Shown here piece by piece: positions 1,429 to 39,929 of a DNA stretch of 45,130 bases. The DNA comes from a virus (lineage: Duplodnaviria > Caudoviricetes). A model generated the notes under the pieces. The model saw only the letters and a program-made list of their open reading frames with translations, had not been told where the DNA came from and did no database searches. Made by a program: the position numbers and the translations under genes. Location of the stretch: positions 1 through 45,130 of IMG/VR virus record IMGVR_UViG_3300037043_000013. The stretch is one strand, 5' to 3'. Position 1 is the first letter of the stretch. The number at the start of each line of letters is the position of its first letter.

Positions 1429-1740
1429 TTGAAGCGCGCCCTATTCGAAGGGCGCGCTCTGGGCTACTGCGAAGCCAAGAAGTTCTGGGCCCACCGGTGT
1501 GAAGGTGGGCTTGATCTCCATGAGGTACTACTGAAGCGGAACGACATGCCGCTGAAGAAGCAGGAGTACCTCGCCGACCCCCGCAACTGCGTCCTCATCT
1601 GCCACAAGGTTCACATGGAACACGGCCAGACGACGGCCTTCAACGAGGCTGCCGTGGGCTACCTGCATCGGTTCTTCCTGCATGGTAACATGCAGCGGTT
1701 CTTGGACGAGGCTCCGCTCAAGGTGAAACACCGCCCTTGA
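1429..1740 (+). CDS. HNH-like endonuclease
   Basis: C-x8-C…DLHE…NCVLICHKVH; GGAGG SD before TTG. Confidence 0.55.
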   Translation: MKRALFEGRALGYCEAKKFWAHRCEGGLDLHEVLLKRNDMPLKKQEYLADPRNCVLICHKVHMEHGQTTAFNEAAVGYLHRFFLHGNMQRFLDEAPLKVKHRP

Positions 1741-1765
1741 CAGGGCGCGGGAAGTGTGTTAGGAT
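1737..1765 (+). promoter_or_regulatory. Sigma70-type promoter for tRNA-like RNA 1
   Basis: TTGACA(1737-1742)-17bp-TAGGAT(1760-1765); predicted +1 coincides with G1772. Confidence 0.8.
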
Positions 1766-1771
1766 TGCTTC

Positions 1772-1903
1772 GTGCTGGCGGCGTGGTGGGACCGCTGACC
1801 CGATAGAGGCGCTACGTGGTGCGTATGCGCCACGTTCGGACAGAGCCCGGCCGAAAGGTATCGTGCATGGATGCGCCCGCCGGTTCGAATCCGGCCCAGC
1901 ACA
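1772..1903 (+). ncRNA. tRNA-like RNA 1 (anticodon arm replaced by ~60-nt structured domain)
   Basis: Acceptor GTGCTGG/CCAGCAC + A; T arm GCCGG-TTCGAAT-CCGGC; D-like arm GCG…CGC; homologous to 9542-9672. Confidence 0.8.
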
Positions 1904-1943
1904 CTAGCCGCAGTCCAGCGGCAATAGGCCACTAGGAGGGCAC

Positions 1944-2555
1944 ATGGACGCAGTAGACAGCAAGACGTTGGAAGCTCTGGGCGGCAAGGTGACGAAGCTC
2001 ACCGTGCAGTCCGGGCGCAAACTCACGGACGGAAACTGGGGCTCACTGGAAGCCTCTTTCGTCTTTGAGATCGAAGTGTCGCCAGACACTGATCCTGCGG
2101 CTCTGGCCATCGCCGGCTACGAGTTCGCAAAGGCGCTGGTGAACCAGACCGTTGTGGCTGACGGGATGGCCCTACAGGCCCAGAATGCGGGCAAGACTGG
2201 CTCCAAGCAGGCTCAGGAAGCCCCCCAGAAGGCCTCAGGAGCGGCGGGGTACCAGAAAGCGCATCAGGAGCCCACTCGGACGCCTGCGGGGGCTGAGGAC
2301 AAGGAGTTCCGCACCGTCGACGCCGAGTACTTCGAGGTCGAGGTCGGGGCCGACAACATCCGCAAGGCGAAGGTCTTTGGAGGTCCGTATAAAAAGTTCG
2401 GAGTCCGCTGCTACCCCGAGCCGCTGGAGGCGGTCGGCATCGACGTGGCGATCCTTGAGGCTGGCAAGTTCGCCATGCCCGATGGCTTCACGAAGATGAA
2501 GGTCGTCCTGAACGAGCAGGGCAACCCGAAGAAGGTTTGGAGCTTGAAAGCCTAG
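1944..2555 (+). CDS. Hypothetical two-domain protein (possibly nucleic-acid binding)
   Basis: AGGAGG SD; two globular regions joined by a Q/A/K-rich linker; function not recognised. Confidence 0.6.
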   Translation: MDAVDSKTLEALGGKVTKLTVQSGRKLTDGNWGSLEASFVFEIEVSPDTDPAALAIAGYEFAKALVNQTVVADGMALQAQNAGKTGSKQAQEAPQKASGAAGYQKAHQEPTRTPAGAEDKEFRTVDAEYFEVEVGADNIRKAKVFGGPYKKFGVRCYPEPLEAVGIDVAILEAGKFAMPDGFTKMKVVLNEQGNPKKVWSLKA

Positions 2556-2935
2556 TACTCAGGTCGCTGCCCCGTTCGCGACTAGACCCGGACATAAGGT
2601 TGCGGACTCTGGGCACCGGTAGCAGCAACTTGGCGGCGGGGCGGCGACCTACTCGGTAACAAACCGTCGGCACTTGTTGACAAGTGTCGACGTTTCGACA
2701 CAACCGAATAGGACGACCTCTGCGGGAGCCCCGTCCGCGTCAACAAGAGGGGCACTCTAGTCACCCCAGACACCCGTTCCGGTGCCTAGCCTAGCGGGAT
2801 AGCGGAACCTAGCGCATGCAACACGGCAAAGGCACGGAGGATGAAAGCGGCTGCGGCTCCGTCAGGCAGACCCGGTCCTCCCCTGAAGAGGGGAGGACTC
2901 TGCCTACTGCCCACCATCAAGCAGCCTATACGAAC
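2556..2935 (+). ncRNA. Candidate large structured ncRNA (~380 nt, pseudoknotted)
   Basis: No credible ORF; stems 2561-2573/2638-2650, 2665-2676/2681-2692, 2875-2884/2889-2898, 2864-2870/2899-2905 plus long-range pairs. Confidence 0.6.
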
Positions 2936-2939
2936 ACCC

Positions 2940-2968
2940 TTGACAGGACACTCGATAGGTGATAGGAT
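2940..2968 (+). promoter_or_regulatory. Sigma70-type promoter, leaderless transcript
   Basis: TTGACA-17bp-TAGGAT, then 6 nt, then ATG 2975. Confidence 0.8.
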
Positions 2969-2974
2969 GACGAC

Positions 2975-3127
2975 ATGACCAAGACATACGCAGCCAGATA
3001 CATCTTGAGCCCGCGGGACGCAAACCTCCTGATCGACCTCTTTGGGTACGACATCCGTGCCGAGGGCGATGACAGCGTTTGGCACTCGCCTTGGGGGGCC
3101 GTTCTCATCGTCGTCGTGAGGTGGTAG
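2975..3127 (+). CDS. 50-aa hypothetical protein (not in ORF track)
   Basis: MTKTYAARYILSPRDANLLIDLFGYDIRAEGDDSVWHSPWGAVLIVVVRW*; starts at predicted +1 and abuts next ATG at 3129. Confidence 0.6.
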   Translation: MTKTYAARYILSPRDANLLIDLFGYDIRAEGDDSVWHSPWGAVLIVVVRW

Positions 3128-3128
3128 C

Positions 3129-3332
3129 ATGACCAAGCCAACCCGCAAGCGAGAGAAAGCCAAGCTGCCGACCGGCCGCTGCCCGGCGCACGCGCACTAC
3201 ACCGGCGTGCGCAAGCCGGACGGAAGCTGCGAGTACTGCATGCAGGTTTGGGAGCGGGCGAACGCAGCAGAAGAGAGCTATTTCGAGGCTATGAAGGAGA
3301 GGACCACGAATGCGCACATTGCACCAAGGTGA
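3129..3332 (+). CDS. Small Zn-binding hypothetical protein
   Basis: CPAH…CEYC. Confidence 0.55.
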   Translation: MTKPTRKREKAKLPTGRCPAHAHYTGVRKPDGSCEYCMQVWERANAAEESYFEAMKERTTNAHIAPR

Positions 3333-3543
3333 ACTGTACTCGATCGACAAGCGTGCGCCGCTGGCCGGCCAACTGGAGTGGGCGCACAAGCGGTTCCGGC
3401 TGAAGCACAAGAGTGAGCCGGTCGACGTCCGCTGGAACCCGGGGGCGTACAAGGACGACACGCTGGCCGACAAGCCGGCGGTGGACAAGAGCGTGCCGCC
3501 CGGGCACGTGTGGTTGGAGTTGGCAAGCGGGCCGGGGGAGTAG
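3310..3543 (+). CDS. Hypothetical protein
   Basis: GGAGAGG SD, operon packing. Confidence 0.55.
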   Translation: MRTLHQGELYSIDKRAPLAGQLEWAHKRFRLKHKSEPVDVRWNPGAYKDDTLADKPAVDKSVPPGHVWLELASGPGE

Positions 3544-3615
3544 GCTAGTACTGGGGGTAGGCAAACCCGTGGATGTGGGGGCTGAAATTGGTCGGAAATT
3601 GGTGCCTTGCAGCCC

Positions 3616-3644
3616 TTGACAGGATCTTGGAACGGTAGTAGGAT
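3616..3644 (+). promoter_or_regulatory. Sigma70-type promoter, leaderless transcript
   Basis: TTGACA-17bp-TAGGAT, then 6 nt, then GTG 3651. Confidence 0.8.
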
Positions 3645-3650
3645 GACAGC

Positions 3651-3956
3651 GTGATCTACTTGGCCGCCACCTTCTTAGTCTTGAACGCCTGCGACATCAT
3701 GCTGACCGCCAGCCTGCTGCCGCTGGGCGGCATCGAACTCAACCCGGTCGCCGTGTGGCTGTTCGCCAACGTCGGCATGGGCTGGGCGGCGGTCATCAAG
3801 ATGACAGCCTCCGGGCTGGTGGCGGCGTCGGCGTGCTGGCTGGCTCGGGAGTTCCCGAGGCTGGCCATGGTGACGATGCACGGGCTTACGATCCTGATGT
3901 TCGGAGTATGCACATGGAACTTAGCGATGATCGCGATGGCACTGTCAAGTTGGTAA
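3651..3956 (+). CDS. DUF5658-like membrane protein
   Basis: LNxxDxxLT…GGIELNP…K pattern, three TM segments. Confidence 0.65.
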   Translation: MIYLAATFLVLNACDIMLTASLLPLGGIELNPVAVWLFANVGMGWAAVIKMTASGLVAASACWLAREFPRLAMVTMHGLTILMFGVCTWNLAMIAMALSSW

Positions 3957-4141
3957 GCGAGGCCGTTGACGAGTTGGAGGACGAACTCCCGAAGTGGGAT
4001 GCGTCCGACGCCATGGTCGGCCACATGCGGCGCTGGCATGCTACCATGCTGGCTGCGCTGACCATCATCGAGTCGATGGGGAACGAGATCCACCGGCTCG
4101 AAGACGAAGTGAGCGTTCTGCGCTCAGGGAAGGACATCTAA
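3914..4141 (+). CDS. Hypothetical coiled-coil protein
   Basis: GGAG SD before ATG 3914; stop overlaps ATG 4141. Confidence 0.5.
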   Translation: MELSDDRDGTVKLVSEAVDELEDELPKWDASDAMVGHMRRWHATMLAALTIIESMGNEIHRLEDEVSVLRSGKDI

Positions 4142-4875
4142 TGCCCGCAGTCCGTGGTAACAAGCAGGCCAAGCACGAGGACTGGACGCCGAAGGAAGAC
4201 CGCCTTCTGTTGGCGCTCCGCAAGAAGAAGGCGTCGTACTCTGAGCTTGCGGCCTGCCTGCCGCGGCACTCGCAGGACGCCATCCGCCAGCACTACTTCG
4301 TGCTGACCCGCAACGAGCCGCACTGGACGGAAGCCGAGAACCTCGCCTTCTTCGATCTGGAGACGAGCCACCTGAAGGCCAACATCGGGATCCTGCTGTC
4401 GTGGGCCTTCAAGCTGCGGGGCGGCGGGGTGGTGTACGACGTCATAACCAAGAAGGACATCATGTCCGGGGTGATGGACAGGCGCATCGTGAAGTCGTTC
4501 ATGGCGGCCATCAAGCCGCTGGACGTCCTGATCGGATACTACTCGACGAAGTTCGACGTGCCGTTCATCCGCACCCGGGCCCTCATGCTGGGCATCCCGT
4601 TCCCCGCCTTCGGGCAGCAGTTCCACCATGACGTGTACTACAGCGCCAAGTGGAAGCTCGATCTGCACTCGAACCGGCTGGACGCAGTGTCGCATGCCCT
4701 CGGGTGCAAGAACGAGAAGACGCCGCTGGACATCAGCATCTGGCAGAAGGCGCAGTACGGCGACCCGAAGTGCCTCGCCTACATCGTGGAGCACAACAAG
4801 GCGGACGTCAGGGTTCTGGAAGAGGTCTTCGAGAAGCTGATGCCGTTCATCCAGATGAAGAGGAAGTCGCTGTGA
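4141..4875 (+). CDS. DEDD/RNase H-fold 3'-5' exonuclease with N-terminal Myb/SANT-like domain
   Basis: ExoI FFDLETS, ExoII YYSTKFDVPFI, ExoIII HNKADV; N-terminal WTPKEDRLLL. Confidence 0.8.
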   Translation: MPAVRGNKQAKHEDWTPKEDRLLLALRKKKASYSELAACLPRHSQDAIRQHYFVLTRNEPHWTEAENLAFFDLETSHLKANIGILLSWAFKLRGGGVVYDVITKKDIMSGVMDRRIVKSFMAAIKPLDVLIGYYSTKFDVPFIRTRALMLGIPFPAFGQQFHHDVYYSAKWKLDLHSNRLDAVSHALGCKNEKTPLDISIWQKAQYGDPKCLAYIVEHNKADVRVLEEVFEKLMPFIQMKRKSL

Positions 4876-5129
4876 AACTCGTGCCCATGGTCGACCCCGA
4901 GTTCTGGGTCCTCGGCATCATCGTGGACCGGGCGGCGCACTTTGCCAGCGTCCACCTTGGCCCGTTGGCGTTGGTCCTACAGATGGACCCGCCGCATGTT
5001 ACCATGCAGGACCTTGAGAAGGCCCAGCAGGAGCAGTACGAAGAGTGGATGGACGAACTGGAGCAGGCCGGCATGATCCAGAAGGTCCGAGTGGTCGAGC
5101 GGATGCCGAGCAGCAGCAAGGTGATGTGA
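4872..5129 (+). CDS. Hypothetical protein
   Basis: GTGA overlap with exonuclease stop. Confidence 0.5.
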   Translation: MKLVPMVDPEFWVLGIIVDRAAHFASVHLGPLALVLQMDPPHVTMQDLEKAQQEQYEEWMDELEQAGMIQKVRVVERMPSSSKVM

Positions 5130-5572
5130 TGGCAAAGAAGCCGACAGCCGCCGAGCGGGCAGAGAAAGCCCGCAACGACAAGGTCTACGAGGCCGAGTGG
5201 GCCGCCGGGACGGCCGTCCTGCGGCCGCTGCTGTCGGTGGTGGAGGCGCAGTCCTACGTCAACAGCGTGCTCAAGCTGCGGTCGTGGAAGAACCGGACGG
5301 GGATAGCCAAGATCGAGGTCGTCTACGTCCCTCAGTGGGATCGCGACTCCTGCATGGAAGACCATCGGACCATCGGAAGGATGGAACTGACGATGGGAAA
5401 CATGACCGAGGGCGTGGTGCTGCACGAGCTTGCGCACGCCGCCCGGGGCGACACCGACAACTCGCACCCGACCGAGTTTCTGGAAATGCTGATCTGGGTG
5501 ATAGGCGTCAGGGTGAACCAGTACATGGCCAACCGTCTCCGAGAAGAGTTGCACCTGAGGAAACTGCTATGA
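5129..5572 (+). CDS. SprT-like/zincin metalloprotein
   Basis: VVLHELAH…SHPTEF. Confidence 0.7.
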   Translation: MAKKPTAAERAEKARNDKVYEAEWAAGTAVLRPLLSVVEAQSYVNSVLKLRSWKNRTGIAKIEVVYVPQWDRDSCMEDHRTIGRMELTMGNMTEGVVLHELAHAARGDTDNSHPTEFLEMLIWVIGVRVNQYMANRLREELHLRKLL

Positions 5573-5718
5573 AGACGATGCTGAGGACTGAGGTCTACGC
5601 CGGGAAGCACTGGGACAGGTTCGGGCTGGGGGTCTTCCTTGACACCTGCGAGGGCCTCGGGATCAGTGTCGACTTCCTGTTCTGGTACTTCGGGTTCACG
5701 ACGTGGCGGGAGGGCTAG
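5569..5718 (+). CDS. Small hypothetical protein
   Basis: ATGA overlap; MKTMLRTEVY…. Confidence 0.5.
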   Translation: MKTMLRTEVYAGKHWDRFGLGVFLDTCEGLGISVDFLFWYFGFTTWREG

Positions 5719-5934
5719 ATGGGCAAGATCTTCATGAACCGTGGCCGCTACGTCTCCGTCACCGATCTGCGGACGGACAAGACGACCTTCCGCTCGATCG
5801 TGGTCGGCCTTGACGGCGGCCTGCGGATGTCCCGCCGGCGGCACAAGACGGCCGCCGCTGCGGAGGGATACGGGCTGGCGCTGACCATGCGGCTCGGCCG
5901 CATGCGTAGGCGGGGAGACAAGGAGGCACAGTGA
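5719..5934 (+). CDS. Basic hypothetical protein
   Basis: GGAGG SD, operon packing. Confidence 0.55.
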   Translation: MGKIFMNRGRYVSVTDLRTDKTTFRSIVVGLDGGLRMSRRRHKTAAAAEGYGLALTMRLGRMRRRGDKEAQ

Positions 5935-6206
5935 CCCGACTAGAGGCCAACATGCGGAACCTGCTGGCGGTGGACGGATGGTGGCACTTCCAGTTCTCGA
6001 AGTGCGACTCCATCAAGGAGACTGTTCGGGAGTTGAAGGACAGGATCCCAGAGGCCCAGAGGGAATACAGCAGGGACGGCAACGGCTGGCAATGGAGGGT
6101 CTTGACAAACAAGAAGAACTGGGTTACGCTTACCCATGTGTTCGACAACTTCCCGATCCTCGAAGAGGCTCTGCTCGTCGCCGAAAGGCAGAAAGGCAAG
6201 AAATGA
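5931..6206 (+). CDS. Hypothetical protein
   Basis: AGGAGG SD, GTGA overlap. Confidence 0.6.
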   Translation: MTRLEANMRNLLAVDGWWHFQFSKCDSIKETVRELKDRIPEAQREYSRDGNGWQWRVLTNKKNWVTLTHVFDNFPILEEALLVAERQKGKK

Positions 6207-6820
6207 AACGACTGTTCGCAATCCTGTTCTGTACGGCCCTGCTGGTCGGGGCGCTGTGGGTGCCGGCGGCCGCCAGCGTGCCGGCAACGCAGGCCACCTG
6301 CCCCAACAGCGCACCGTGGGTGAAGGTCGACGGCCTGACCGGCAAGACCTACGCCTACACGGCACCCGAGGGCAAGCTCGTTGCCGAGACTTGCTACAAG
6401 GCGGCAACGACCGTCGTGTATGCGGACGTGGACCCGGCGTCGTCGCCCGTGACTGTTACCAGCACGGTGACGAACAAGAAGGGCAAGGTACAGGACCTCA
6501 GCCACGCGTCCTTCCGGCTCGTGGACGATGAGGCTCCTCCTCCCCCTCCCCCTCCGCCGCCACCTCCTCCTCCGCCGCCTCCTCCGCCCAAGCACTGCAA
6601 GGTTCAGGGCGACATCTGGTATCAGTGCGAGAGCGGGGCATGGCTGTATGGAACCGGCCTGCTCCGTGATTGCGTGTGGTGCGGTGGGCTGACCGGCCGC
6701 CGTGTCGTGCGCGAGAGCTACGACTGCGGTGAGCACTACACTTGGTATGATGGCGGGGTCCGTGTCGAGGATCCCCCGCAGCCGCTGGGGCGCTACGCCT
6801 GCCCCGGCAACTGCAAGTAG
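6203..6820 (+). CDS. Secreted Cys-rich protein with poly-proline linker
   Basis: Signal peptide MKRLFAILFCTALLVGALWVPAAA; 18 consecutive Pro at 6536-6589. Confidence 0.7.
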   Translation: MKRLFAILFCTALLVGALWVPAAASVPATQATCPNSAPWVKVDGLTGKTYAYTAPEGKLVAETCYKAATTVVYADVDPASSPVTVTSTVTNKKGKVQDLSHASFRLVDDEAPPPPPPPPPPPPPPPPPPKHCKVQGDIWYQCESGAWLYGTGLLRDCVWCGGLTGRRVVRESYDCGEHYTWYDGGVRVEDPPQPLGRYACPGNCK

Positions 6821-6889
6821 CAAGCCTGCCGGCGGCGGCGTCACACCCGCCCCGGCACCTACGTCGTGAGTTGATAGGAGAGGTTGAGA

Positions 6890-7159
6890 ATGGGACACGA
6901 CATGACCCCCGACGAGTTGCGGAAGTGGGCCGAGAATGAAAGCGATGGAGTGCTCCTAATCCCGGCAAGTCGGTTGTTTGCCGCCGCCGACGCATGGAAG
7001 GCGGACCTAGAATGGCACAGAGAGCAGACCGAGGGGGTTTGGGCTGCTAACGCCGTCCTCCGCCAGCGGCTGGAGGCGGTTCGGGCGCTGGCGGGGGAGA
7101 ACTTCGACAGCCTGACTATTGAGCGCAAGCTGAACGCCGCCCTCGCAGGGAAGCCATGA
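6890..7159 (+). CDS. Mosaic-family small protein (PDELRK…AADAW…AALAG)
   Basis: Shares exact DNA blocks with 8343, 9733, 10195 and 10641 genes. Confidence 0.65.
   Translation: MGHDMTPDELRKWAENESDGVLLIPASRLFAAADAWKADLEWHREQTEGVWAANAVLRQRLEAVRALAGENFDSLTIERKLNAALAGKP
6979..7079 (+). repeat. 101-bp direct repeat, copy 1 (copy 2 at 10314-10414)
   Basis: tgccgccgccgacgcatggaagg…cggctggaggcgg identical in both copies by eye. Confidence 0.9.
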
Positions 7160-7701
7160 GACGAGGCCCGCAGGTCAACCCGTCCAAGGTCTACTACGAC
7201 CCGGGCGGCTGCAAGCGGGGGCACGATCCCTGCGTGCGCTGGCTGGCAAGCTGCAAGTGCCTGACGTGCGAGAAGGAATCTACTGGTCGTGGGGTCTTCG
7301 CTGAGGCCGACAGGGTGTGCCCGCGCTGCGGCTGCTACTTCGAGGAGGGACACGTCTGGGGCGGCAAGGGCGTGCTGTGCAAAGAGTGTGCCTCAACCGA
7401 CCCGAAGTGGGACTGCGGAACGACATTCCTGTGCGTTGAGGGAGACAAGCCGTTTATCGGCGGGCACTATCGCAAAGAGCAGATGGCGTGGTCGCTCATT
7501 CTGGAATCGTGGGACCTCGGCATGGTGTTCGAGGAGTGGCGAGGGGGAAAGTACTTCTGCTCGTGGCGTGTTGTCCCCAACACGGCCAACCGCCCGGTTC
7601 GTGACGTCCTGACGTCATGGCGCGAGGGCCATCGCCCGCCCATCATCCTAGAGCTCGTCGACCGCCAGCCCAAGGGCGACGGGAGGATCCTGAAGCCATG
7701 A
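7156..7701 (+). CDS. Cys-rich zinc-finger hypothetical protein
   Basis: CKRGH, CLTC, CPRC, CKEC. Confidence 0.6.
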   Translation: MRRGPQVNPSKVYYDPGGCKRGHDPCVRWLASCKCLTCEKESTGRGVFAEADRVCPRCGCYFEEGHVWGGKGVLCKECASTDPKWDCGTTFLCVEGDKPFIGGHYRKEQMAWSLILESWDLGMVFEEWRGGKYFCSWRVVPNTANRPVRDVLTSWREGHRPPIILELVDRQPKGDGRILKP

Positions 7702-7952
7702 CGAGGGACGCCGACCTGCGGCGCAAGTACGGCATCACGGCGGCGGACTACGACCGCATGCTGGCCGAGCAGGGCGGCGTGTGCGCCATCTGCGGGCGGC
7801 CGCCAAAGACAAGGCGGCTGAACGTGGACCACGACCACAGGACCGGCAAGGTGCGCGGAATCTTGTGCTGGCGCTGCAACAAGGGATTGCAGTTCTTTAG
7901 CGATGACGCTAAACATCTGAGAAAGGCGGCTGCGTATGTCCGATCTCGATGA
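7698..7952 (+). CDS. Endonuclease VII-family (His-Me) nuclease
   Basis: KYGITAADYDRML…QGGVCAIC…VDHDHRTGKVRGILCWRCN. Confidence 0.9.
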   Translation: MTRDADLRRKYGITAADYDRMLAEQGGVCAICGRPPKTRRLNVDHDHRTGKVRGILCWRCNKGLQFFSDDAKHLRKAAAYVRSR

Positions 7953-8346
7953 GTGGTTCGGCCCACGAGAGGTCACTGCGGAAGGCGAGATCGTCGTGCG
8001 GCGCACCAAGTTCCCGGCGGCCGAAGAGCCCATCCGCCCGATCTTAGACAGGATGCTGGCCATCTGGGAAGCCGAAGGCCGGCAGGCGGCCAAGGCATTC
8101 GTCGCCACGTGGACGCAGGGGGCACGGGACTACGTCGAGCAGGTCGACGGGGACGCTGACCGGTTCGAGCGGGCCATGCGGCTGCTGATTGCCAAGGGGC
8201 TGACGATCAGGAGCCCGCGCAGTATGATTGCGGTGGCGCTGGACATGAAGGCGAAGGAGCAGCCCAAGAAGACAGACTACGGCGTGTGCCCGGATTGCGG
8301 GGCACCATTCGGTTTGCACAACCGAGACTGCGAGGCTTACGAATGA
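7936..8346 (+). CDS. Hypothetical protein with C-terminal Zn ribbon
   Basis: CPDC…HNRDC; operon packing. Confidence 0.55.
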   Translation: MSDLDEWFGPREVTAEGEIVVRRTKFPAAEEPIRPILDRMLAIWEAEGRQAAKAFVATWTQGARDYVEQVDGDADRFERAMRLLIAKGLTIRSPRSMIAVALDMKAKEQPKKTDYGVCPDCGAPFGLHNRDCEAYE

Positions 8347-8654
8347 ACACCCCCGACGAGTTGCGGAAGTGGGCGAATGGCTATGAACTCCAGGGACGCC
8401 ATGAGATTGCGGGGCTGTTCCGTGCCGCCGCCGACGCATGGGGGAGGCTGGAGCTTCAATACAAGGCGGCAAACGAACACATCGGCAAACTGGCCGCCGA
8501 CCTGACCATCCTCCGCAAGCGGCTGGAGGCGGCGGAGAAGACCATCGGCACGTTGCAGGCAGACCGCATCAAAGCGCAGGCCACCATAGACCACTACCGG
8601 ACAATGCTGGAGGCGGTGGAGAAGCAACTGCCGCCGTCGGACATCCCGTTCTAG
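8343..8654 (+). CDS. Mosaic-family coiled-coil protein
   Basis: TPDELRKWA…AAADAW…LRKRLEAAEK. Confidence 0.65.
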   Translation: MNTPDELRKWANGYELQGRHEIAGLFRAAADAWGRLELQYKAANEHIGKLAADLTILRKRLEAAEKTIGTLQADRIKAQATIDHYRTMLEAVEKQLPPSDIPF

Positions 8655-8662
8655 GAGGACCC

Positions 8663-9445
8663 ATGAACCAACGCGTTGAATGCCCAACCGCCGCTGATGT
8701 CGAGAAGGCCCTGGCCAATGGCGACATCGCCATCGTCCGCTTCTCCGGTTGGATAACCGTGCGGGGGTCGGCGCACGTCGAGGCCCGGGGGTCGGCGCAC
8801 GTCGTGGCCTATGACTCGGCGCACGTCGTGGCCCGGGGGTCGGCGCACGTCGTGGCCTATGACTCGGCGCACGTCGTGGCCCGGTGGTCGGCGCACGTCG
8901 AGGCCTATGACTCGGCGCACGTCGTGGCCTATGACTCGGCGCACGTCGAGGCCCGGGGGTCGGCGCACGTCGAGGCCTATGACTCGGCGCACGTCGTGGC
9001 CTCCAAACTTGTGGCCGTTCACCGGCACGGAAACACCCCGATGGTCAAGGGTGGAGTCATCATCCAGGTCGATCCACCGAAGACCGCCGCCGAATGGCTC
9101 GACCTCTACGGCATCGAAGTCGTCGACGGCATCGCCGTTCTCTACAAGGCGCTGGACGACAGGTTTGTCAGCCCGCGCGGAATGTCCTACGCGCCCGGCA
9201 CGACCCCCTCGGCCCCCGATTGGGACGGTGGCAAAGCAGAGTGCGGAGGCGGGCTGCACTTCTCGCCTTCGCCTTTCATGGCGAAGGAGTTTGCCCCGGA
9301 GGCCAGGCGCTTCGCGGCTTGCCCCGTCCTCGTCTCCGAGATAGTCGTTCACGAGAACGCGACCTATCCCAATAAGGTAAAGGCCCCGCGGTGCATCGCG
9401 CCGGTTTGGGAAGTTGACGCCTATGGGAACGAGGTGCGTGCGTGA
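8663..9445 (+). CDS. Octapeptide-repeat protein with conserved phage-type C-terminal domain
   Basis: AGGAGG SD; 10x SAHV[EV]A[RG/YD]; C-terminal ECGGGLHF…KVKA. Confidence 0.75.
   Translation: MNQRVECPTAADVEKALANGDIAIVRFSGWITVRGSAHVEARGSAHVVAYDSAHVVARGSAHVVAYDSAHVVARWSAHVEAYDSAHVVAYDSAHVEARGSAHVEAYDSAHVVASKLVAVHRHGNTPMVKGGVIIQVDPPKTAAEWLDLYGIEVVDGIAVLYKALDDRFVSPRGMSYAPGTTPSAPDWDGGKAECGGGLHFSPSPFMAKEFAPEARRFAACPVLVSEIVVHENATYPNKVKAPRCIAPVWEVDAYGNEVRA
8768..9001 (+). repeat. 24-bp coding tandem repeat, 10 units
   Basis: tcggcgcacgtcg[ag/tg]gcc[cggggg/tatgac]. Confidence 0.95.
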
Positions 9446-9541
9446 CCGATCCGCTGCCGGCGCTGTCTGACATCCCGCCTTGTGCGGCTGGGCAGTACGC
9501 ACTCGATGCCGAGCCCTAGAGCGGCGGGCGGCGGGAAACAT

Positions 9542-9672
9542 GGGAGAGCGGCGTGGTGAGACACGCTTACCGAGTAGACCGCTACGGGGTGCGTATGTGC
9601 CCCGTCTCGACCGAGCCCGACCGAAAGGTATCGTGCAGTGATGCGGAAGCCGGATCATTCCGGCCTCTCCCA
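9542..9672 (+). ncRNA. tRNA-like RNA 2
   Basis: Acceptor GGGAGAG/CTCTCCC + A; T stem GCCGG/CCGGC with degenerate loop ATCATT; collinear with 1772-1903 with compensatory changes. Confidence 0.75.
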
Positions 9673-9732
9673 ACTTGCAGGCGGGGCGGCGGAAACTTAC
9701 TCAACGTCGTGAGTAGTTCGCAGGAGGCTGGA

Positions 9733-9924
9733 ATGGGACACGACATGACCAAGGATGTTGGTGATACGACCAAGCCTGTTGGTGGCCCAGACGAGTTGCG
9801 GAAGGCTATCGACAAACTGCTTCCATTGGACGAGTTTGACTATGAGAAAGCCGAGGCGTGGAATGCCGGCCGTGCCGCCGCTCAGCGGCGGGGCGGCGGA
9901 ACACAGGAGACCGACGATGACTGA
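9733..9924 (+). CDS. Mosaic-family small protein
   Basis: AGGAGG SD; MGHDMTKDVGDTTKPVGGPDELRKA. Confidence 0.55.
   Translation: MGHDMTKDVGDTTKPVGGPDELRKAIDKLLPLDEFDYEKAEAWNAGRAAAQRRGGGTQETDDD
9740..9807 (+). repeat. 68-bp direct repeat, copy 1 (copy 2 at 10190-10257)
   Basis: acgacatgaccaaggatgttgg…gcggaaggct identical in both copies. Confidence 0.9.
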
Positions 9925-10198
9925 GCCAACACCGCGCACGATATCCGAGCTCCTCCGCGACATCGCCGGCGCCGACGTCCGGCGTGGCGTGTACCGCGTC
10001 TCTCTCGTGGCGGCTGCCCACACGACCGGCTTCAACGCGGTCGTCGAGATGCGCGGCAACCATGTCGATGGCTACGGCGGCTTCACCTTCCACGCCGACA
10101 CACCCGAGGTCGCCCTGGAGGGCGTCGAGCTCGAACTGCTCGCCGCGCTTGGACGCTGCCCGGAGTGCGGCAATTTCCGAGAGGGGAAGACGACATGA
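9917..10198 (+). CDS. Hypothetical protein with C-terminal CPEC
   Basis: AGGAG SD; MTEPTPRTISELL…. Confidence 0.55.
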   Translation: MTEPTPRTISELLRDIAGADVRRGVYRVSLVAAAHTTGFNAVVEMRGNHVDGYGGFTFHADTPEVALEGVELELLAALGRCPECGNFREGKTT

Positions 10199-10644
10199 CC
10201 AAGGATGTTGGTGATACGACCAAGCCTGTTGGTGGCCCAGACGAGTTGCGGAAGGCTGCCGAACGGCTTGCATGCGAGCTTGGCGACATGGCACCCCCTA
10301 TCGTCGCCCTGCGTGCCGCCGCCGACGCATGGAAGGCGGACCTAGAATGGCACAGAGAGCAGACCGAGGGGGTTTGGGCTGCTAACGCCGTCCTCCGCCA
10401 GCGGCTGGAGGCGGCGGAGAGCCTGCGGCGCTTCGCTTCGGCATGCCGCATGGCCGTTGGCGGACGCATGGACGACTACCTCTATGCCGTCTATGCGTTG
10501 CGTGACGACCCCGTGACCGAGAAGGCGGGACTGACCGACCTCGCATGGGCACTGCTACAAGGCGGAAACGTCAGCAGAGGCGACTGGGATGGGTTTGTGA
10601 AGCATTGGCTGGCCGCCGCCCTCGCAGGGAAGGAGAAGCCATGA
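10195..10644 (+). CDS. Mosaic-family protein
   Basis: Carries both the 68-bp and 101-bp repeats; ends AALAGKEKP. Confidence 0.65.
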   Translation: MTKDVGDTTKPVGGPDELRKAAERLACELGDMAPPIVALRAAADAWKADLEWHREQTEGVWAANAVLRQRLEAAESLRRFASACRMAVGGRMDDYLYAVYALRDDPVTEKAGLTDLAWALLQGGNVSRGDWDGFVKHWLAAALAGKEKP

Positions 10645-19095: not shown

Positions 19096-19124
19096 ATCCT
19101 ACCACAGAAGCCGCATCCTGTCAA
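19096..19124 (-). promoter_or_regulatory. Sigma70-type promoter (leftward)
   Basis: Minus strand cccTTGACAggatgcggcttctgtggTAGGATtgtc, a close match to the 980 promoter. Confidence 0.8.
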
Positions 19125-20269: not shown

Positions 20270-20348
20270 TAAAGGACGACCTGAGCGTCCTCTACCGAGG
20301 CGGGGCCAAGGGAACGGGCGATCACTGCCCGCATCAGGACCTGTGGCT

Positions 20349-21062
20349 ATGAGGGCTTTTCTCGTGGGCAACGGCCCCTCGCTGTCCCACGCGGACCTCG
20401 ACCTGATCGAGCACGAAGACTCGTTCGGGATGAACCGCATCCACCTGATGTACCCGAAGACCGAGTGGCGGCCGACGTACTTCATGTGGTCCGACCTCCC
20501 GCAGCGGGAGGACGACTTCCATGCCCTGATGACGCACGTCACGTCCGGGGAAGAGTGCTACATCCGAGAGGACATCGTCGAGCTTCTTCAGGGCAAGTGG
20601 CATGCACATCCCAAAGTGTGGCTTGAGTTTGTGCCCACATGGGTCCACCCGTGGAAGTTCCACCTTGAGCACCTGTGCGCCGCCCCCGGCGACGCCAACT
20701 GGCCCGCCAAGTGGTGCGTCCCCGAGGAGCCGGACACGCTCTGCAAGCTGGGGACCGGCATGGGGCCCATGATGCAGCAGGCTATCAAGATGGGCTACAC
20801 CGAACTGTACCTGCTTGGGTGCGACTTGGACTGGCACCCCCTCCTGAGCGAGGGCGACAGCAACCACTTCAGCAAGGAGTACGAGGCCTTCCTAGAGATC
20901 CACACCGAGGACCGGGCGAAGTACAACAACGAGCTTGGCCGCCAGATGCACGAACTGGCCTACGAGTGGTGCAAGGCCAACGGCATCTGGGTCTGGAATG
21001 CCACGCCCGGCGGCACGCTGGAGGTCTACCCAAGGGTCAGCCTGTGCGATGTTTTGTCGTAG
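20349..21062 (+). CDS. DUF115/Maf-like (sialyltransferase-fold) glycosyltransferase 1
   Basis: FLVGNGPSL, FGMNRI, MGYTELYLLGCD, NHF, NATPGG.L. Confidence 0.8.
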   Translation: MRAFLVGNGPSLSHADLDLIEHEDSFGMNRIHLMYPKTEWRPTYFMWSDLPQREDDFHALMTHVTSGEECYIREDIVELLQGKWHAHPKVWLEFVPTWVHPWKFHLEHLCAAPGDANWPAKWCVPEEPDTLCKLGTGMGPMMQQAIKMGYTELYLLGCDLDWHPLLSEGDSNHFSKEYEAFLEIHTEDRAKYNNELGRQMHELAYEWCKANGIWVWNATPGGTLEVYPRVSLCDVLS

Positions 21063-21733
21063 GCAACGGGCCCTCGCTGGCTGACACCAACTTGGACCTG
21101 CTGGCCGGCGAGACGACCTTCGGGCTCAACCAGTGCCATCTGATCTACCCGCACACGACGTGGCGGCCCACGCACTGGGTGTGCGTGGACAGGGACCTAC
21201 AGATCCCGATCGACGAGTGGGCGAGCCTGTTCCTCCTGCACGAAGAGCAGGGGTACCGGTGTCACATCGCACCCCGCCACTTCACCCGCCTACAGGCCCT
21301 CGGCATCCCGCCGGACGACCTGCGCCGCCGGTTCGACATCCTGCCGCTCTGCATGCGGCACGGCGTACGGGTCGGCCACCGGGAGTGGTGGCCGGATAGC
21401 TGGCACCTGCCGGAACTCTGCGTCTTCGGAGGTAGCGGGCTGACGGCAATCCAGCTTGCGGTGACGATGGGCTACGACGAGATCTACGTGGTCGGCATGG
21501 ACGTCGACTACGAGCCCGGGAAGAACAACCACTTCTCGGAGGACTACTTCAACTTCCGCCCCTACGACCCTGAGTGGGCCCAGTATCTGGCCGAGGCGCA
21601 AGCCTACGCCCACGGGCTTGCATGGCGGGAGTGCCTCGGCCGCGGCGTCACGATCGCCAACGCCGGCGTCGGCGGCAAACTGGAGGCGTACCCAAGATGC
21701 GAGCTTGGATCGTTGGTAACGGCCCGAGCCTGA
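21044..21733 (+). CDS. DUF115/Maf-like glycosyltransferase 2
   Basis: FVVGNGPSL, FGLN, MGYDEIYVVGMD, NHF, NAGVGG.L. Confidence 0.8.
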   Translation: MRCFVVGNGPSLADTNLDLLAGETTFGLNQCHLIYPHTTWRPTHWVCVDRDLQIPIDEWASLFLLHEEQGYRCHIAPRHFTRLQALGIPPDDLRRRFDILPLCMRHGVRVGHREWWPDSWHLPELCVFGGSGLTAIQLAVTMGYDEIYVVGMDVDYEPGKNNHFSEDYFNFRPYDPEWAQYLAEAQAYAHGLAWRECLGRGVTIANAGVGGKLEAYPRCELGSLVTARA

Positions 21734-22368
21734 ACAAACTTCCGCTGGACCGGCTGGAGAACGAGGTGACGTTCGGCGTCAACCGGATCCACCTGCTCTA
21801 CCACCGGACGACTTGGCGGCCGACCCACTGGGTGCTGGCTGACCGGTCGAAGGCACCGTTCTACGTCGACGACATCCTGCTGCACGTCAACATGCGGGAG
21901 GACTGCTGGGTGCGGCAGGACTTCTACGACGACATGGTGGCCAAGAAGGGCGAGGTCTTCGGCAACGTCCACCTGTACCCGAACTGCACGCACGTCGACG
22001 CCAGCCGCAACCCGTCGCCGGGCTGGCACGAGCCGGAGTACTGCATCTTCGGCGGCAGCGTGCCGACGGCAATCCAGATCGCCGCCCGGCTGGGGTACAA
22101 CGACCTGTACGTCATCGGCTGCGACCTCGGCTACAAGGGCAACGAGGTCAACCACTTCGACCCCGAGTACATGCCCGTCGACAACCGCAAGGTGCAGCAG
22201 GCGAGGCTCCAGAACCAGACGCTCCAGATGGCCCACGAGTTGGCCTACCGGGAGTGCCGGCTGCGAGGCATCCGCATCTACAACGCAGGCGTGGGCGGGG
22301 AGCTTACGGCCTACCCACGTGTGGACTTCGAGGACGTGCTGAGTGACAGCAAAACGGGTCGTGACTAA
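21697..22368 (+). CDS. DUF115/Maf-like glycosyltransferase 3
   Basis: WIVGNGPSL, FGVNRI, LGYNDLYVIGCD, NHF, NAGVGG.L. Confidence 0.8.
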   Translation: MRAWIVGNGPSLNKLPLDRLENEVTFGVNRIHLLYHRTTWRPTHWVLADRSKAPFYVDDILLHVNMREDCWVRQDFYDDMVAKKGEVFGNVHLYPNCTHVDASRNPSPGWHEPEYCIFGGSVPTAIQIAARLGYNDLYVIGCDLGYKGNEVNHFDPEYMPVDNRKVQQARLQNQTLQMAHELAYRECRLRGIRIYNAGVGGELTAYPRVDFEDVLSDSKTGRD

Positions 22369-39233: not shown

Positions 39234-39929
39234 ATGCCGAGAGCCTTCATCGTCGCAACGGGACCTAGCCTGAACTGGACGCCGCTGGACAGACTGGCCA
39301 GCGAAGTCACGTACAGCTTCAACAAGGTCTACCTGCTGTTCGACAAGACGAAGTGGAGGCCGAACTACTGGGTCATCGCCGACCTGTCGGCGTCAGACCG
39401 GTGGCCGATGGACGGGGTCTTCAAGCACGGGTCGAAGTACCTTGTGCGAGCAGACTTCCAAGACGCCGTCGGCGAGCACATCAAGGAGGCGGGGGCCGAC
39501 GTGGAGTGGGTGCCCCGCTGCGAGAAGCACGACCACATGAACTGCCAGTCCGAAGGCACGCCGCAAGCATGGCACCTGCCGACGTACTGCCGGTTCGGTG
39601 GCGGGATGTTCATCGCCATCCAGCATGCGGTGATGCACGGGTACAACCCCCTGTACCTAGTCGGAGCCGACCTCTACAGGGAGAACGACCTTGACGAGAG
39701 CAAGTGGTTTGACGTCAACCACTTCAGCCCCGAGTACGGCGTCAAGATGCCAAGCAAGTTCGGATCGTACGATAGGTTCAATCAGACGCTCATCCTAGCC
39801 CACCGGAACGCCCTTGACGGGTGTCGCGAGCGGGGCGTGGAGATCTTCAACGCCACGGCGGGGGGCAGTCTGGAAATCTATCCGAGGGTCAACTTAGGAG
39901 ACATCCTTGGCCAACAGAAAGAGACATAA
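39234..39929 (+). CDS. DUF115/Maf-like glycosyltransferase 4
   Basis: FIVATGPSL, YSFNKV, GYNPLYLVGAD, NHF, NATAGGSLEIYPRV. Confidence 0.8.
   Translation: MPRAFIVATGPSLNWTPLDRLASEVTYSFNKVYLLFDKTKWRPNYWVIADLSASDRWPMDGVFKHGSKYLVRADFQDAVGEHIKEAGADVEWVPRCEKHDHMNCQSEGTPQAWHLPTYCRFGGGMFIAIQHAVMHGYNPLYLVGADLYRENDLDESKWFDVNHFSPEYGVKMPSKFGSYDRFNQTLILAHRNALDGCRERGVEIFNATAGGSLEIYPRVNLGDILGQQKET

Follow-up and report, generated by a model that had tools for sequence, protein, structure and literature searches.

An optional tRNA-shaped RNA gene of a tailed phage, with an insert ahead of a predicted anticodon arm

The RNA gene and its surroundings

The IMG/VR virus record IMGVR_UViG_3300037043_000013 (the window analysed here is the whole record, 45,130 bases, estimated to be 97% complete) carries two copies of an uncatalogued, optional RNA gene that has the shape of a transfer RNA (tRNA), likely derives from tRNA-Cys, and bears an insert between its D arm and a predicted anticodon arm. 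Because an SU10-type capsid gene, a terminase and a GH25 lysin are encoded in the window, the virus is read as a tailed phage of a bacterium. Its host can be approached only through leads: one capsid relative is labelled as coming from a Thermoleophilia metagenome-assembled genome, and the lysin cluster is mostly Bacillota.

Copy 1 occupies positions 1772..1903 (132 nucleotides, nt) and copy 2 positions 9542..9672 (131 nt, with a different acceptor stem), both on the plus strand. They align by blastn with 80% identity over 120 nt (E 1e-23), and are the only matches in the record. A third full homologue, L078:874-1006, was recovered from a metagenome scan with the invariant block described below, which returned three matches, one of them real. 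The three homologues are 131-133 nt long and show pairwise identities of 99/130, 111/131 and 104/131 (76-85%). A contig from one further sequencing run (X13) carries the differences that mark L078, and is not counted as a fourth homologue. Immediately upstream of the L078 homologue, at L078:840-868, is a hairpin that resembles a T arm stacked on a short stem. The gene that follows copy 1 and the gene that precedes the L078 homologue have no detectable relationship.

Copy 1 is preceded by a predicted sigma70-type promoter (1737..1765, plus strand; -35 box at 1737-1742, -10 box at 1760-1765), and its first base, 7 nt downstream of the -10 box, falls on the predicted +1. Downstream lies an open reading frame (ORF) of 203 amino acids that belongs to no family (1944..2555, plus strand). 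Between 9200 and 10000 there is no consensus promoter or terminator for copy 2. A 15-nt G-rich motif occurs three times on the plus strand of that region (9523, 9680 and 9887, spanning 9523..9901), and the two occurrences that flank copy 2 belong to a set of possible recombination handles.

Fold and anatomy

In copy 1, the 5' strand of the acceptor stem (1772..1778) pairs at all seven positions with 1896-1902, and A73 follows at 1903. A C8-G9 linker and the D arm (1779..1796) come next; the D stem has a core of 3 base pairs (bp) that can be extended to 6 bp in copy 2, in L078 and in the L141 RNA described below. The 60-nt insert (1797..1856) is composed of a 4-bp helix (1800-1803/1836-1839), a 9-10-nt bulge, a 9-bp hairpin (1814-1835), a 3-nt linker and the start of the invariant block. 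It leads into a predicted anticodon arm (1858..1874) with a 5-bp stem and a 7-nt loop that includes G32, U33 and the anticodon GCA (1865-1867), and this arm is followed by a 4-nt variable loop (1875-1878) and a T arm with a canonical loop (1879..1895). The corresponding parts of copy 2, also on the plus strand, are the insert (9568-9626), the anticodon arm (9628-9644), GCA (9635-9637) and the T arm (9649-9664). The discriminator is A73 in all three homologues, and CCA is not encoded. The 7-bp acceptor, the D arm and a 5-bp T stem closed by a TTCRANY loop are present in copy 1 and L078; the T loop of copy 2 is degenerate and only 6 nt long, a point missing from the original prediction, which was made from the sequence before any searches.

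A structure comprising the acceptor, the D stem, the two insert helices, the 5-bp arm and the T stem was scored across the three homologues. All 99 cells (33 pairs in three sequences) are paired and 9 of the 33 pairs change on both sides, which was achieved by none of 500 shuffles and by no slid control, in a comparison of three sequences from which the structure itself was derived. The two-sided changes fall in the acceptor (4/7 pairs), the 4-bp insert helix (3/4), the insert hairpin (1/9) and the T stem (1/5); L078 supplies a third variant of the 4-bp helix and the compensatory pair in the T stem. The acceptor is conserved in pairing and not in sequence. Folding z-scores are -1.75, -3.62 and -3.73, and copy 1 by itself is not exceptional.

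Most of what the original prediction had reported at this level holds: the two RNAs are collinear, both acceptors pair at 7/7 positions and end in A73 with no encoded CCA, the T stems of the two copies are identical, and the insert helices covary. Its anatomy has to be redrawn. What had been described as a variable-arm-like hairpin is better understood as an anticodon arm with GCA in its loop, at the canonical distance from the T arm, so that the anticodon arm is not replaced but predicted to be kept, with the extra 60 nt placed before it. A search for a canonical anticodon arm among 1815 single-segment excisions left seven with four or more pairs plus U33 in each of the three homologues. The top four all rely on the existing arm at 1858-1874 (five pairs, a 7-nt loop with U33 and GCA, then 4 nt to the T stem); an arm at such spacing arises in 0.15-0.27% of shuffles, by a test devised post hoc. 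An arrangement in which the anticodon stem closes the insert was discarded, its energy lying about 7-8 kcal/mol above those of the two alternatives scored with it. The most conserved part of the RNA runs from the last bases of the insert to the anticodon (1843..1867, plus strand), a block in which 24 of 25 columns are invariant (permutation p 0.014).

Probable relationship to tRNA-Cys

An independent pattern, built from the T arm and acceptor only, retrieved 12 loci. ARAGORN finds a tRNA at the match in six of these, four being tRNA-Cys(GCA) (three distinct sequences) and two undetermined, and derivation of the RNA from tRNA-Cys is likely. The canonical tRNA-Cys genes retrieved have U8, C32, A37, U73 and an encoded CCA, while all three homologues have C8, G32 and A73, and copy 1 has U37. 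The identity set of CysRS is given as U73 plus GCA in the accessible text of two papers (PMC8762117; PMC5389517), and the discriminator here is A73 in each case. Nor does the RNA form a cloverleaf of about 74 nt with U8 that ARAGORN or RF00005 detects; it is 131-133 nt long, has C8 and is matched by neither. Because of A73 in place of U73, C8, G32 and an acceptor free to vary, the RNA probably does not decode.

A competing anticodon arm with TAG (Leu) can be drawn just after the D arm. It lacks U33, has 3-4 of 5 pairs with 67% of cells paired, and costs 5-9 kcal/mol in stability; when it was tested jointly with a candidate relic T arm located in the insert, 179 of 500 shuffles did as well. The Leu(TAG) arm and the relic T arm were both rejected on these grounds, as was a class II tRNA-Leu, since no long variable arm is left once the GCA arm is assigned.

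Filled and empty alleles

Contigs from 8 of 24 listed runs, all at low depth (2-5), bear on whether copy 1 is a fixed part of the genome. In near-identical phages the segment 1745..1905 is swapped for 26 other letters. The clearest case is a contig from run X12 that passes from 1744 through these 26 letters to 1906, with the same -10 box, no other difference and 47 letters on its short side. Run X15 has this joint too, with a short side of 22 letters, under the tool's bar of 31. In X7 a contig ends loosely, with the -10 box before 1906, and the fit for X9 also begins at 1906. Run X5 contains copy 1 unchanged together with a piece of copy 2. Neither X6, an RNA run, nor X10 yields a contig over the gene, and both are uninformative on expression or absence. 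Copy 1 is optional, and is missing at this first site in near-identical phages, whereas the 203-amino-acid ORF is found in the filled and the empty allele alike.

Because the promoter spacer also differs between the alleles and no target-site duplication is seen, homologous exchange is suggested as the origin of the difference; gain and loss are not distinguishable. Near-identical sigma70-type promoter motifs recur in the window at 980, 1737, 2940, 3616, 19186 and 35966 on the plus strand and at 19124 on the minus strand, and could provide homology for the exchange of cassettes.

Distribution, related RNAs and neighbouring genes

The searches for further full-length relatives came back empty. 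Patterns built from the invariant block gave no matches in IMG/VR at first, and later 3 and 11, all attributable to chance. In GTDB genomes, 60 pattern matches reached at best 18 bits, against 138-143 bits for the training members, and include no homologue; phage and plasmid collections contained nothing full-length. Run over 13 other phage records, the search model (R1) picked up no complete member, only two short frames at 28.7 and 18.2 bits, in the range of ordinary tRNAs.

Several RNAs share parts of the frame. A 215-nt RNA at L141:607-821 (plus strand), identical in L152 and likewise brought up by the pattern from the T arm and acceptor, has the same type of acceptor, C8-G9, D arm, T arm and A73, along with a 4-nt variable loop; at the anticodon position it has a 5-bp stem with a 17-nt loop, and its cargo is not the same. 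An ERF gene lies before it, and for its phage no capsid relative was detected. Just upstream, at L141:390-497 (plus strand), is another tRNA-ended RNA with an 8-bp acceptor, a C-G linker, a T arm and an encoded ACCA, and a weak match (13.7 bits) to transfer-messenger RNA (tmRNA).

The closest whole relative of the window phage, G001, whose capsid is 84% identical, has instead a short form reduced to the top half of the tRNA (L102:1501-1577, minus strand, 77 nt), preceded by its own promoter-like sequence. A 69-nt form is found in G013 (L103:1501-1569, minus strand). In both, the acceptor sequence is that of L078, a G-1:C73 pair is possible, and an irregular hairpin replaces the D and anticodon arms.

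A scan for the frame also turned up RNAs of about 100 nt in two of the 13 phage records, both from capsid-related phages (L120:8094-8196 and L125:3621-3716, minus strand), with tmRNA matches of 46.7 and 37.8 bits. They have G3-U70 and tmRNA-like ends, are too short for an mRNA-like domain, and could possibly be tmRNA decoys. Near position 800 of L143, L146, L149 and L150 are tRNA-like genes with odd or enlarged anticodon regions, which have the T-arm and acceptor pattern in common, and the capsid-related phages L117 and L120 contain tRNA-sized frames with irregular anticodon loops that ARAGORN misses.

A protein-family scan of 64 ORFs of the window detected no transposase, integrase or reverse transcriptase, no TROVE (Ro60) protein, and no ligase or splicing endonuclease. 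PADLOC gave no match among 11 neighbouring genes, and NCBIfam matched one of 23, below its cut-off. Tandem repeats of about 24 nt are found at 8760-9000, inside an ORF just upstream of copy 2 (8663-9445; phrog_15773, DUF7666-like). In the early region, N-terminal gene modules are repeated at 6902, 8343, 9733-9810 and 10190-10260, a pattern that suggests frequent recombination around copy 2. Four paralogous sialyltransferase-like genes (phrog_4603) lie near the virion genes, at 20343-22368 and 39234-39929, and are paralogous in G001 as well.

Possible roles of the RNA

The explanation that we favour, if only tentatively, is that this is an optional, non-decoding RNA derived from tRNA-Cys which, with its 60-base insert, may serve as a decoy that occupies a host defence enzyme that recognises tRNA. 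It would be transcribed early from the promoter of copy 1, as a leaderless RNA with its 5' end at +1, and would be released by host 3'-end processing and CCA addition, leaving the downstream mRNA with approximately the 5' end that it has in the empty allele. Stability would be conferred by the top half of the tRNA and its elbow. Because the invariant block is conserved in sequence and the acceptor only in pairing, action is presumed to run through that block, from the end of the insert to GCA. The target, the least supported step, may be an anticodon nuclease; it may also be a nuclease or sensor that holds the RNA by its T arm and CCA end. There is precedent for both kinds of target: host nucleases that attack anticodon loops are countered by phage tRNAs, according to part of the text of PMC10264068, and Cas12a3 is described, in the accessible sections of PMC12851939, as engaging the T arm, acceptor stem and CCA while tolerating changes in the stem. 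If a decoy is indeed encoded, tRNA-directed immunity could be blunted by a phage RNA that takes no part in translation. The original prediction had likewise proposed a non-decoding tRNA mimic, and a conserved, tRNA-shaped and probably non-decoding scaffold or decoy is also the best reading here, with a different anatomy and without its appeal to LeuRS.

A number of observations weigh against a decoy descended from tRNA-Cys. No paper was found that shows decoy action by a non-decoding look-alike of a phage tRNA, the published counter-defence consisting of working tRNAs. There are only three distinct homologues, at 76-85% identity, and their invariance may partly reflect recent descent; the anticodon stem is invariant in all three and hence has no support from covariation. 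The partition function favours, for copy 2, a fold of two hairpins in place of the anticodon arm, and the loss of the T-loop consensus in the same copy suggests decay or a relaxed need for the elbow. The 215-nt L141 RNA has no GCA loop, so that GCA is not a property of the whole family that shares the frame. Lastly, ARAGORN alone does not pick Cys: over 1221 boundary pairs, the 46 excisions that are called alike in all three homologues comprise 35 Leu(TAG) and 11 Cys(GCA).

Unlikely, but with specific features in its favour, is a gated tRNA or sensor, in which the end of the insert hides the GCA arm as two hairpins until a ligand or a partner RNA, acting at the invariant strand, frees GCA. Within the block, a 3-bp hairpin with a GAAA loop (1850-1859) competes with the anticodon stem, so that either the anticodon arm or two small hairpins that conceal GCA can form. 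These two mutually exclusive folds lie within 0.5-2.4 kcal/mol of each other in all three homologues, the hairpin shows a one-sided A-U/G-U change, and the invariant block is exactly the region that would switch. The balance is not shared, however, since L078 is almost wholly open and copy 2 closed, copy 1 being mixed; no antisense partner of at least 11 nt occurs within the window, and the loop pairs with the insert no better than expected by chance (null fractions 0.06-0.51, and 0.13 for L141). The specific proposal that the anticodon pairs with UGY triplets of the insert was rejected, such pairing being at chance level. In an extended version, which we consider similarly doubtful, the cargo domain that hides GCA is docked between the D and anticodon arms and is swappable. 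Phages would then exchange cassettes with a tRNA frame, as sensors or decoys, at early promoters; the present RNA, the 215-nt form, the short top-half forms and the mini-tmRNAs would together make up a counter-defence kit of RNA alone.

Removal of the insert as an intron is improbable. About 61 nt would be excised after the D arm, leaving a tRNA(GCA) of 71-74 nt that replaces or competes with the host tRNA-Cys, and that perhaps, because of A73, carries another amino acid. Such an excision does give a tRNA-Cys call in all three homologues, and tRNAs of Lak phages have conserved introns that are unexplained in the accessible text of PMC6784885. The products, however, do not reach ARAGORN thresholds cleared by 10 of 15 control tRNAs, and they retain C8, G32 and A73. 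The arm pattern has six matches in IMG/VR, none of them a twin that lacks the insert, and the scanned ORFs include neither a ligase nor a splicing endonuclease. Self-splicing introns are far longer than this insert, and a tRNA containing a group I or group II intron was set aside with no match to the Rfam intron models. Splicing at a bulge-helix-bulge (BHB) motif was also rejected: no such motif is shared by the three homologues at the junctions needed, and although a minimal BHB-like geometry exists around the 4-bp insert helix in all three, cutting there yields a tRNA in none.

A processing signal acting in cis is no more probable. Cuts made by host enzymes at the tRNA shape would define or shield the 5' end with which the downstream mRNA begins, in the manner of t-elements, for which part of the text of PMC4326828 provides the precedent. 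The position of copy 1 between a promoter and the next gene fits, and a 3' cut would recreate nearly the end found in the empty allele. Yet in that allele the same gene stands behind the same -10 box with no element at all, and processing has no need of an anticodon or of an insert end that is invariant in sequence.

Somewhat less probable again is that the gene is a cassette that hitch-hikes or is selfish, or that it is what remains of fused tRNA genes in decay, and that it is tolerated since processing by the host takes it out. Its patchy presence is consistent with this, as are the lack of a full-length member in the 13 other phage records and, in copy 2, the degenerate T loop and flanking repeats. 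Against it stand nine compensatory pairs with no broken pair, the absence of a target-site duplication, the differing promoter spacer that suggests homologous exchange, and the lack of a transposase, integrase or reverse transcriptase among the scanned ORFs; the candidate relic arms within the insert (Leu anticodon and T-like) do not outperform shuffles.

The version in the original prediction, an aminoacyl carrier charged by LeuRS or a ribozyme on a tRNA scaffold, is very improbable: A73 in all three homologues, TAG at 34-36 when counted from the D arm, and Leu(TAG) as the commonest ARAGORN call on excision products speak for it, but tRNA-Cys genes are the nearest canonical relatives that were retrieved, the TAG arm has no U33 and does not pass the pair test, the long variable arm disappears once the GCA arm is assigned, and no known aptamer or ribozyme family is matched in Rfam. 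Resemblances, judged by eye, to group II domain 5 and to pistol, twister and HDV-like ribozymes have no support from Rfam; for domain 5, the spacing of the invariant block did not fit by eye.

Whatever its role, the gene offers a natural experiment: near-identical phages have or lack it at a single promoter, one genome holds two diverged copies, and elsewhere the frame recurs with other cargo.

Comparison with known systems

No description of this RNA family was found in the literature searched, most subscription papers being outside the search. The ARAGORN and Rfam searches proposed with the original prediction were run, and the RNA is missed by both, with no strong match to a known family: ARAGORN reports no tRNA or tmRNA gene in the window, and Rfam nothing relevant there, nor in a local search at E up to 10. 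Standard tRNA finders thus miss genes that carry an insert after the D arm and before the anticodon arm. A tmRNA is not indicated, G3-C70 being present in all three homologues with no match to RF00023, and the same search does detect the mini-tmRNAs of the relatives.

The YrlA Y RNAs (RF02553) are non-decoding RNAs of bacteria and phages with a tRNA-like elbow, as far as the accessible text of PMC4201824 describes them. Their tRNA domain is permuted, with the acceptor closed by a loop, and a Ro60 gene is nearby, whereas the present RNA ends at its acceptor, has no TROVE gene among the scanned ORFs and no Rfam match. The motif GNCGAAN0-1G, which stands near the 5' end in YrlA, occurs only in copy 1, where it is internal. 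The intron-bearing tRNAs of Lak megaphages resemble it in having conserved inserts whose removal is unexplained in the text available (PMC6784885); they are known there with and without the insert, while here it is the whole gene that comes and goes.

The irregular allo-tRNAs of Mukai et al. (PMC5389517; review PMC7609411) also combine a tRNA body with an extra arm, and several are described, in the parts of these papers drawn on, as inactive in translation and located near toxin-antitoxin genes. They are mostly of the 8/4 or 9/3 type, with a long variable arm and an extra loop between the acceptor and the D arm; the present RNA is 7/5, has a 4-nt variable loop, and has its insert between the D and anticodon arms. 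With A73 it also differs from selC*, which has U73. The five-stem allo-tRNAs were compared by their description in the text, and the supplementary figures of PMC5389517 may show similar forms.

Closer in sequence are the canonical phage tRNA-Cys(GCA) genes (RF00005; L142, L144 and L151), which have a near-identical T arm, similar acceptor strands and GCA with U33. They differ in U8, C32, A37, U73, an encoded CCA, a 6-nt variable loop and the lack of an insert, where the present RNA has C8, G32, A73, no CCA, a 4-nt variable loop and 60 additional nt.

The nearest kind is RNAC of phage T4 (species 1 RNA, rnaC, 139 nt; NC_000866 70908-71046), likewise a small phage RNA, with a canonical T arm at its 3' end that a hairpin directly precedes, and with an interior that is large and structured. 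It is expressed, and its function is given as unknown in the accessible text of PMC9697503; tRNA-shaped phage RNAs of this type are still without a known job. The two are not homologous, as model R1 matches only the T arm of RNAC, at 8 bits. RNAC is also part of a tRNA cluster, whereas the present RNA stands in a window with no tRNA genes and combines a perfect acceptor with a GCA loop.

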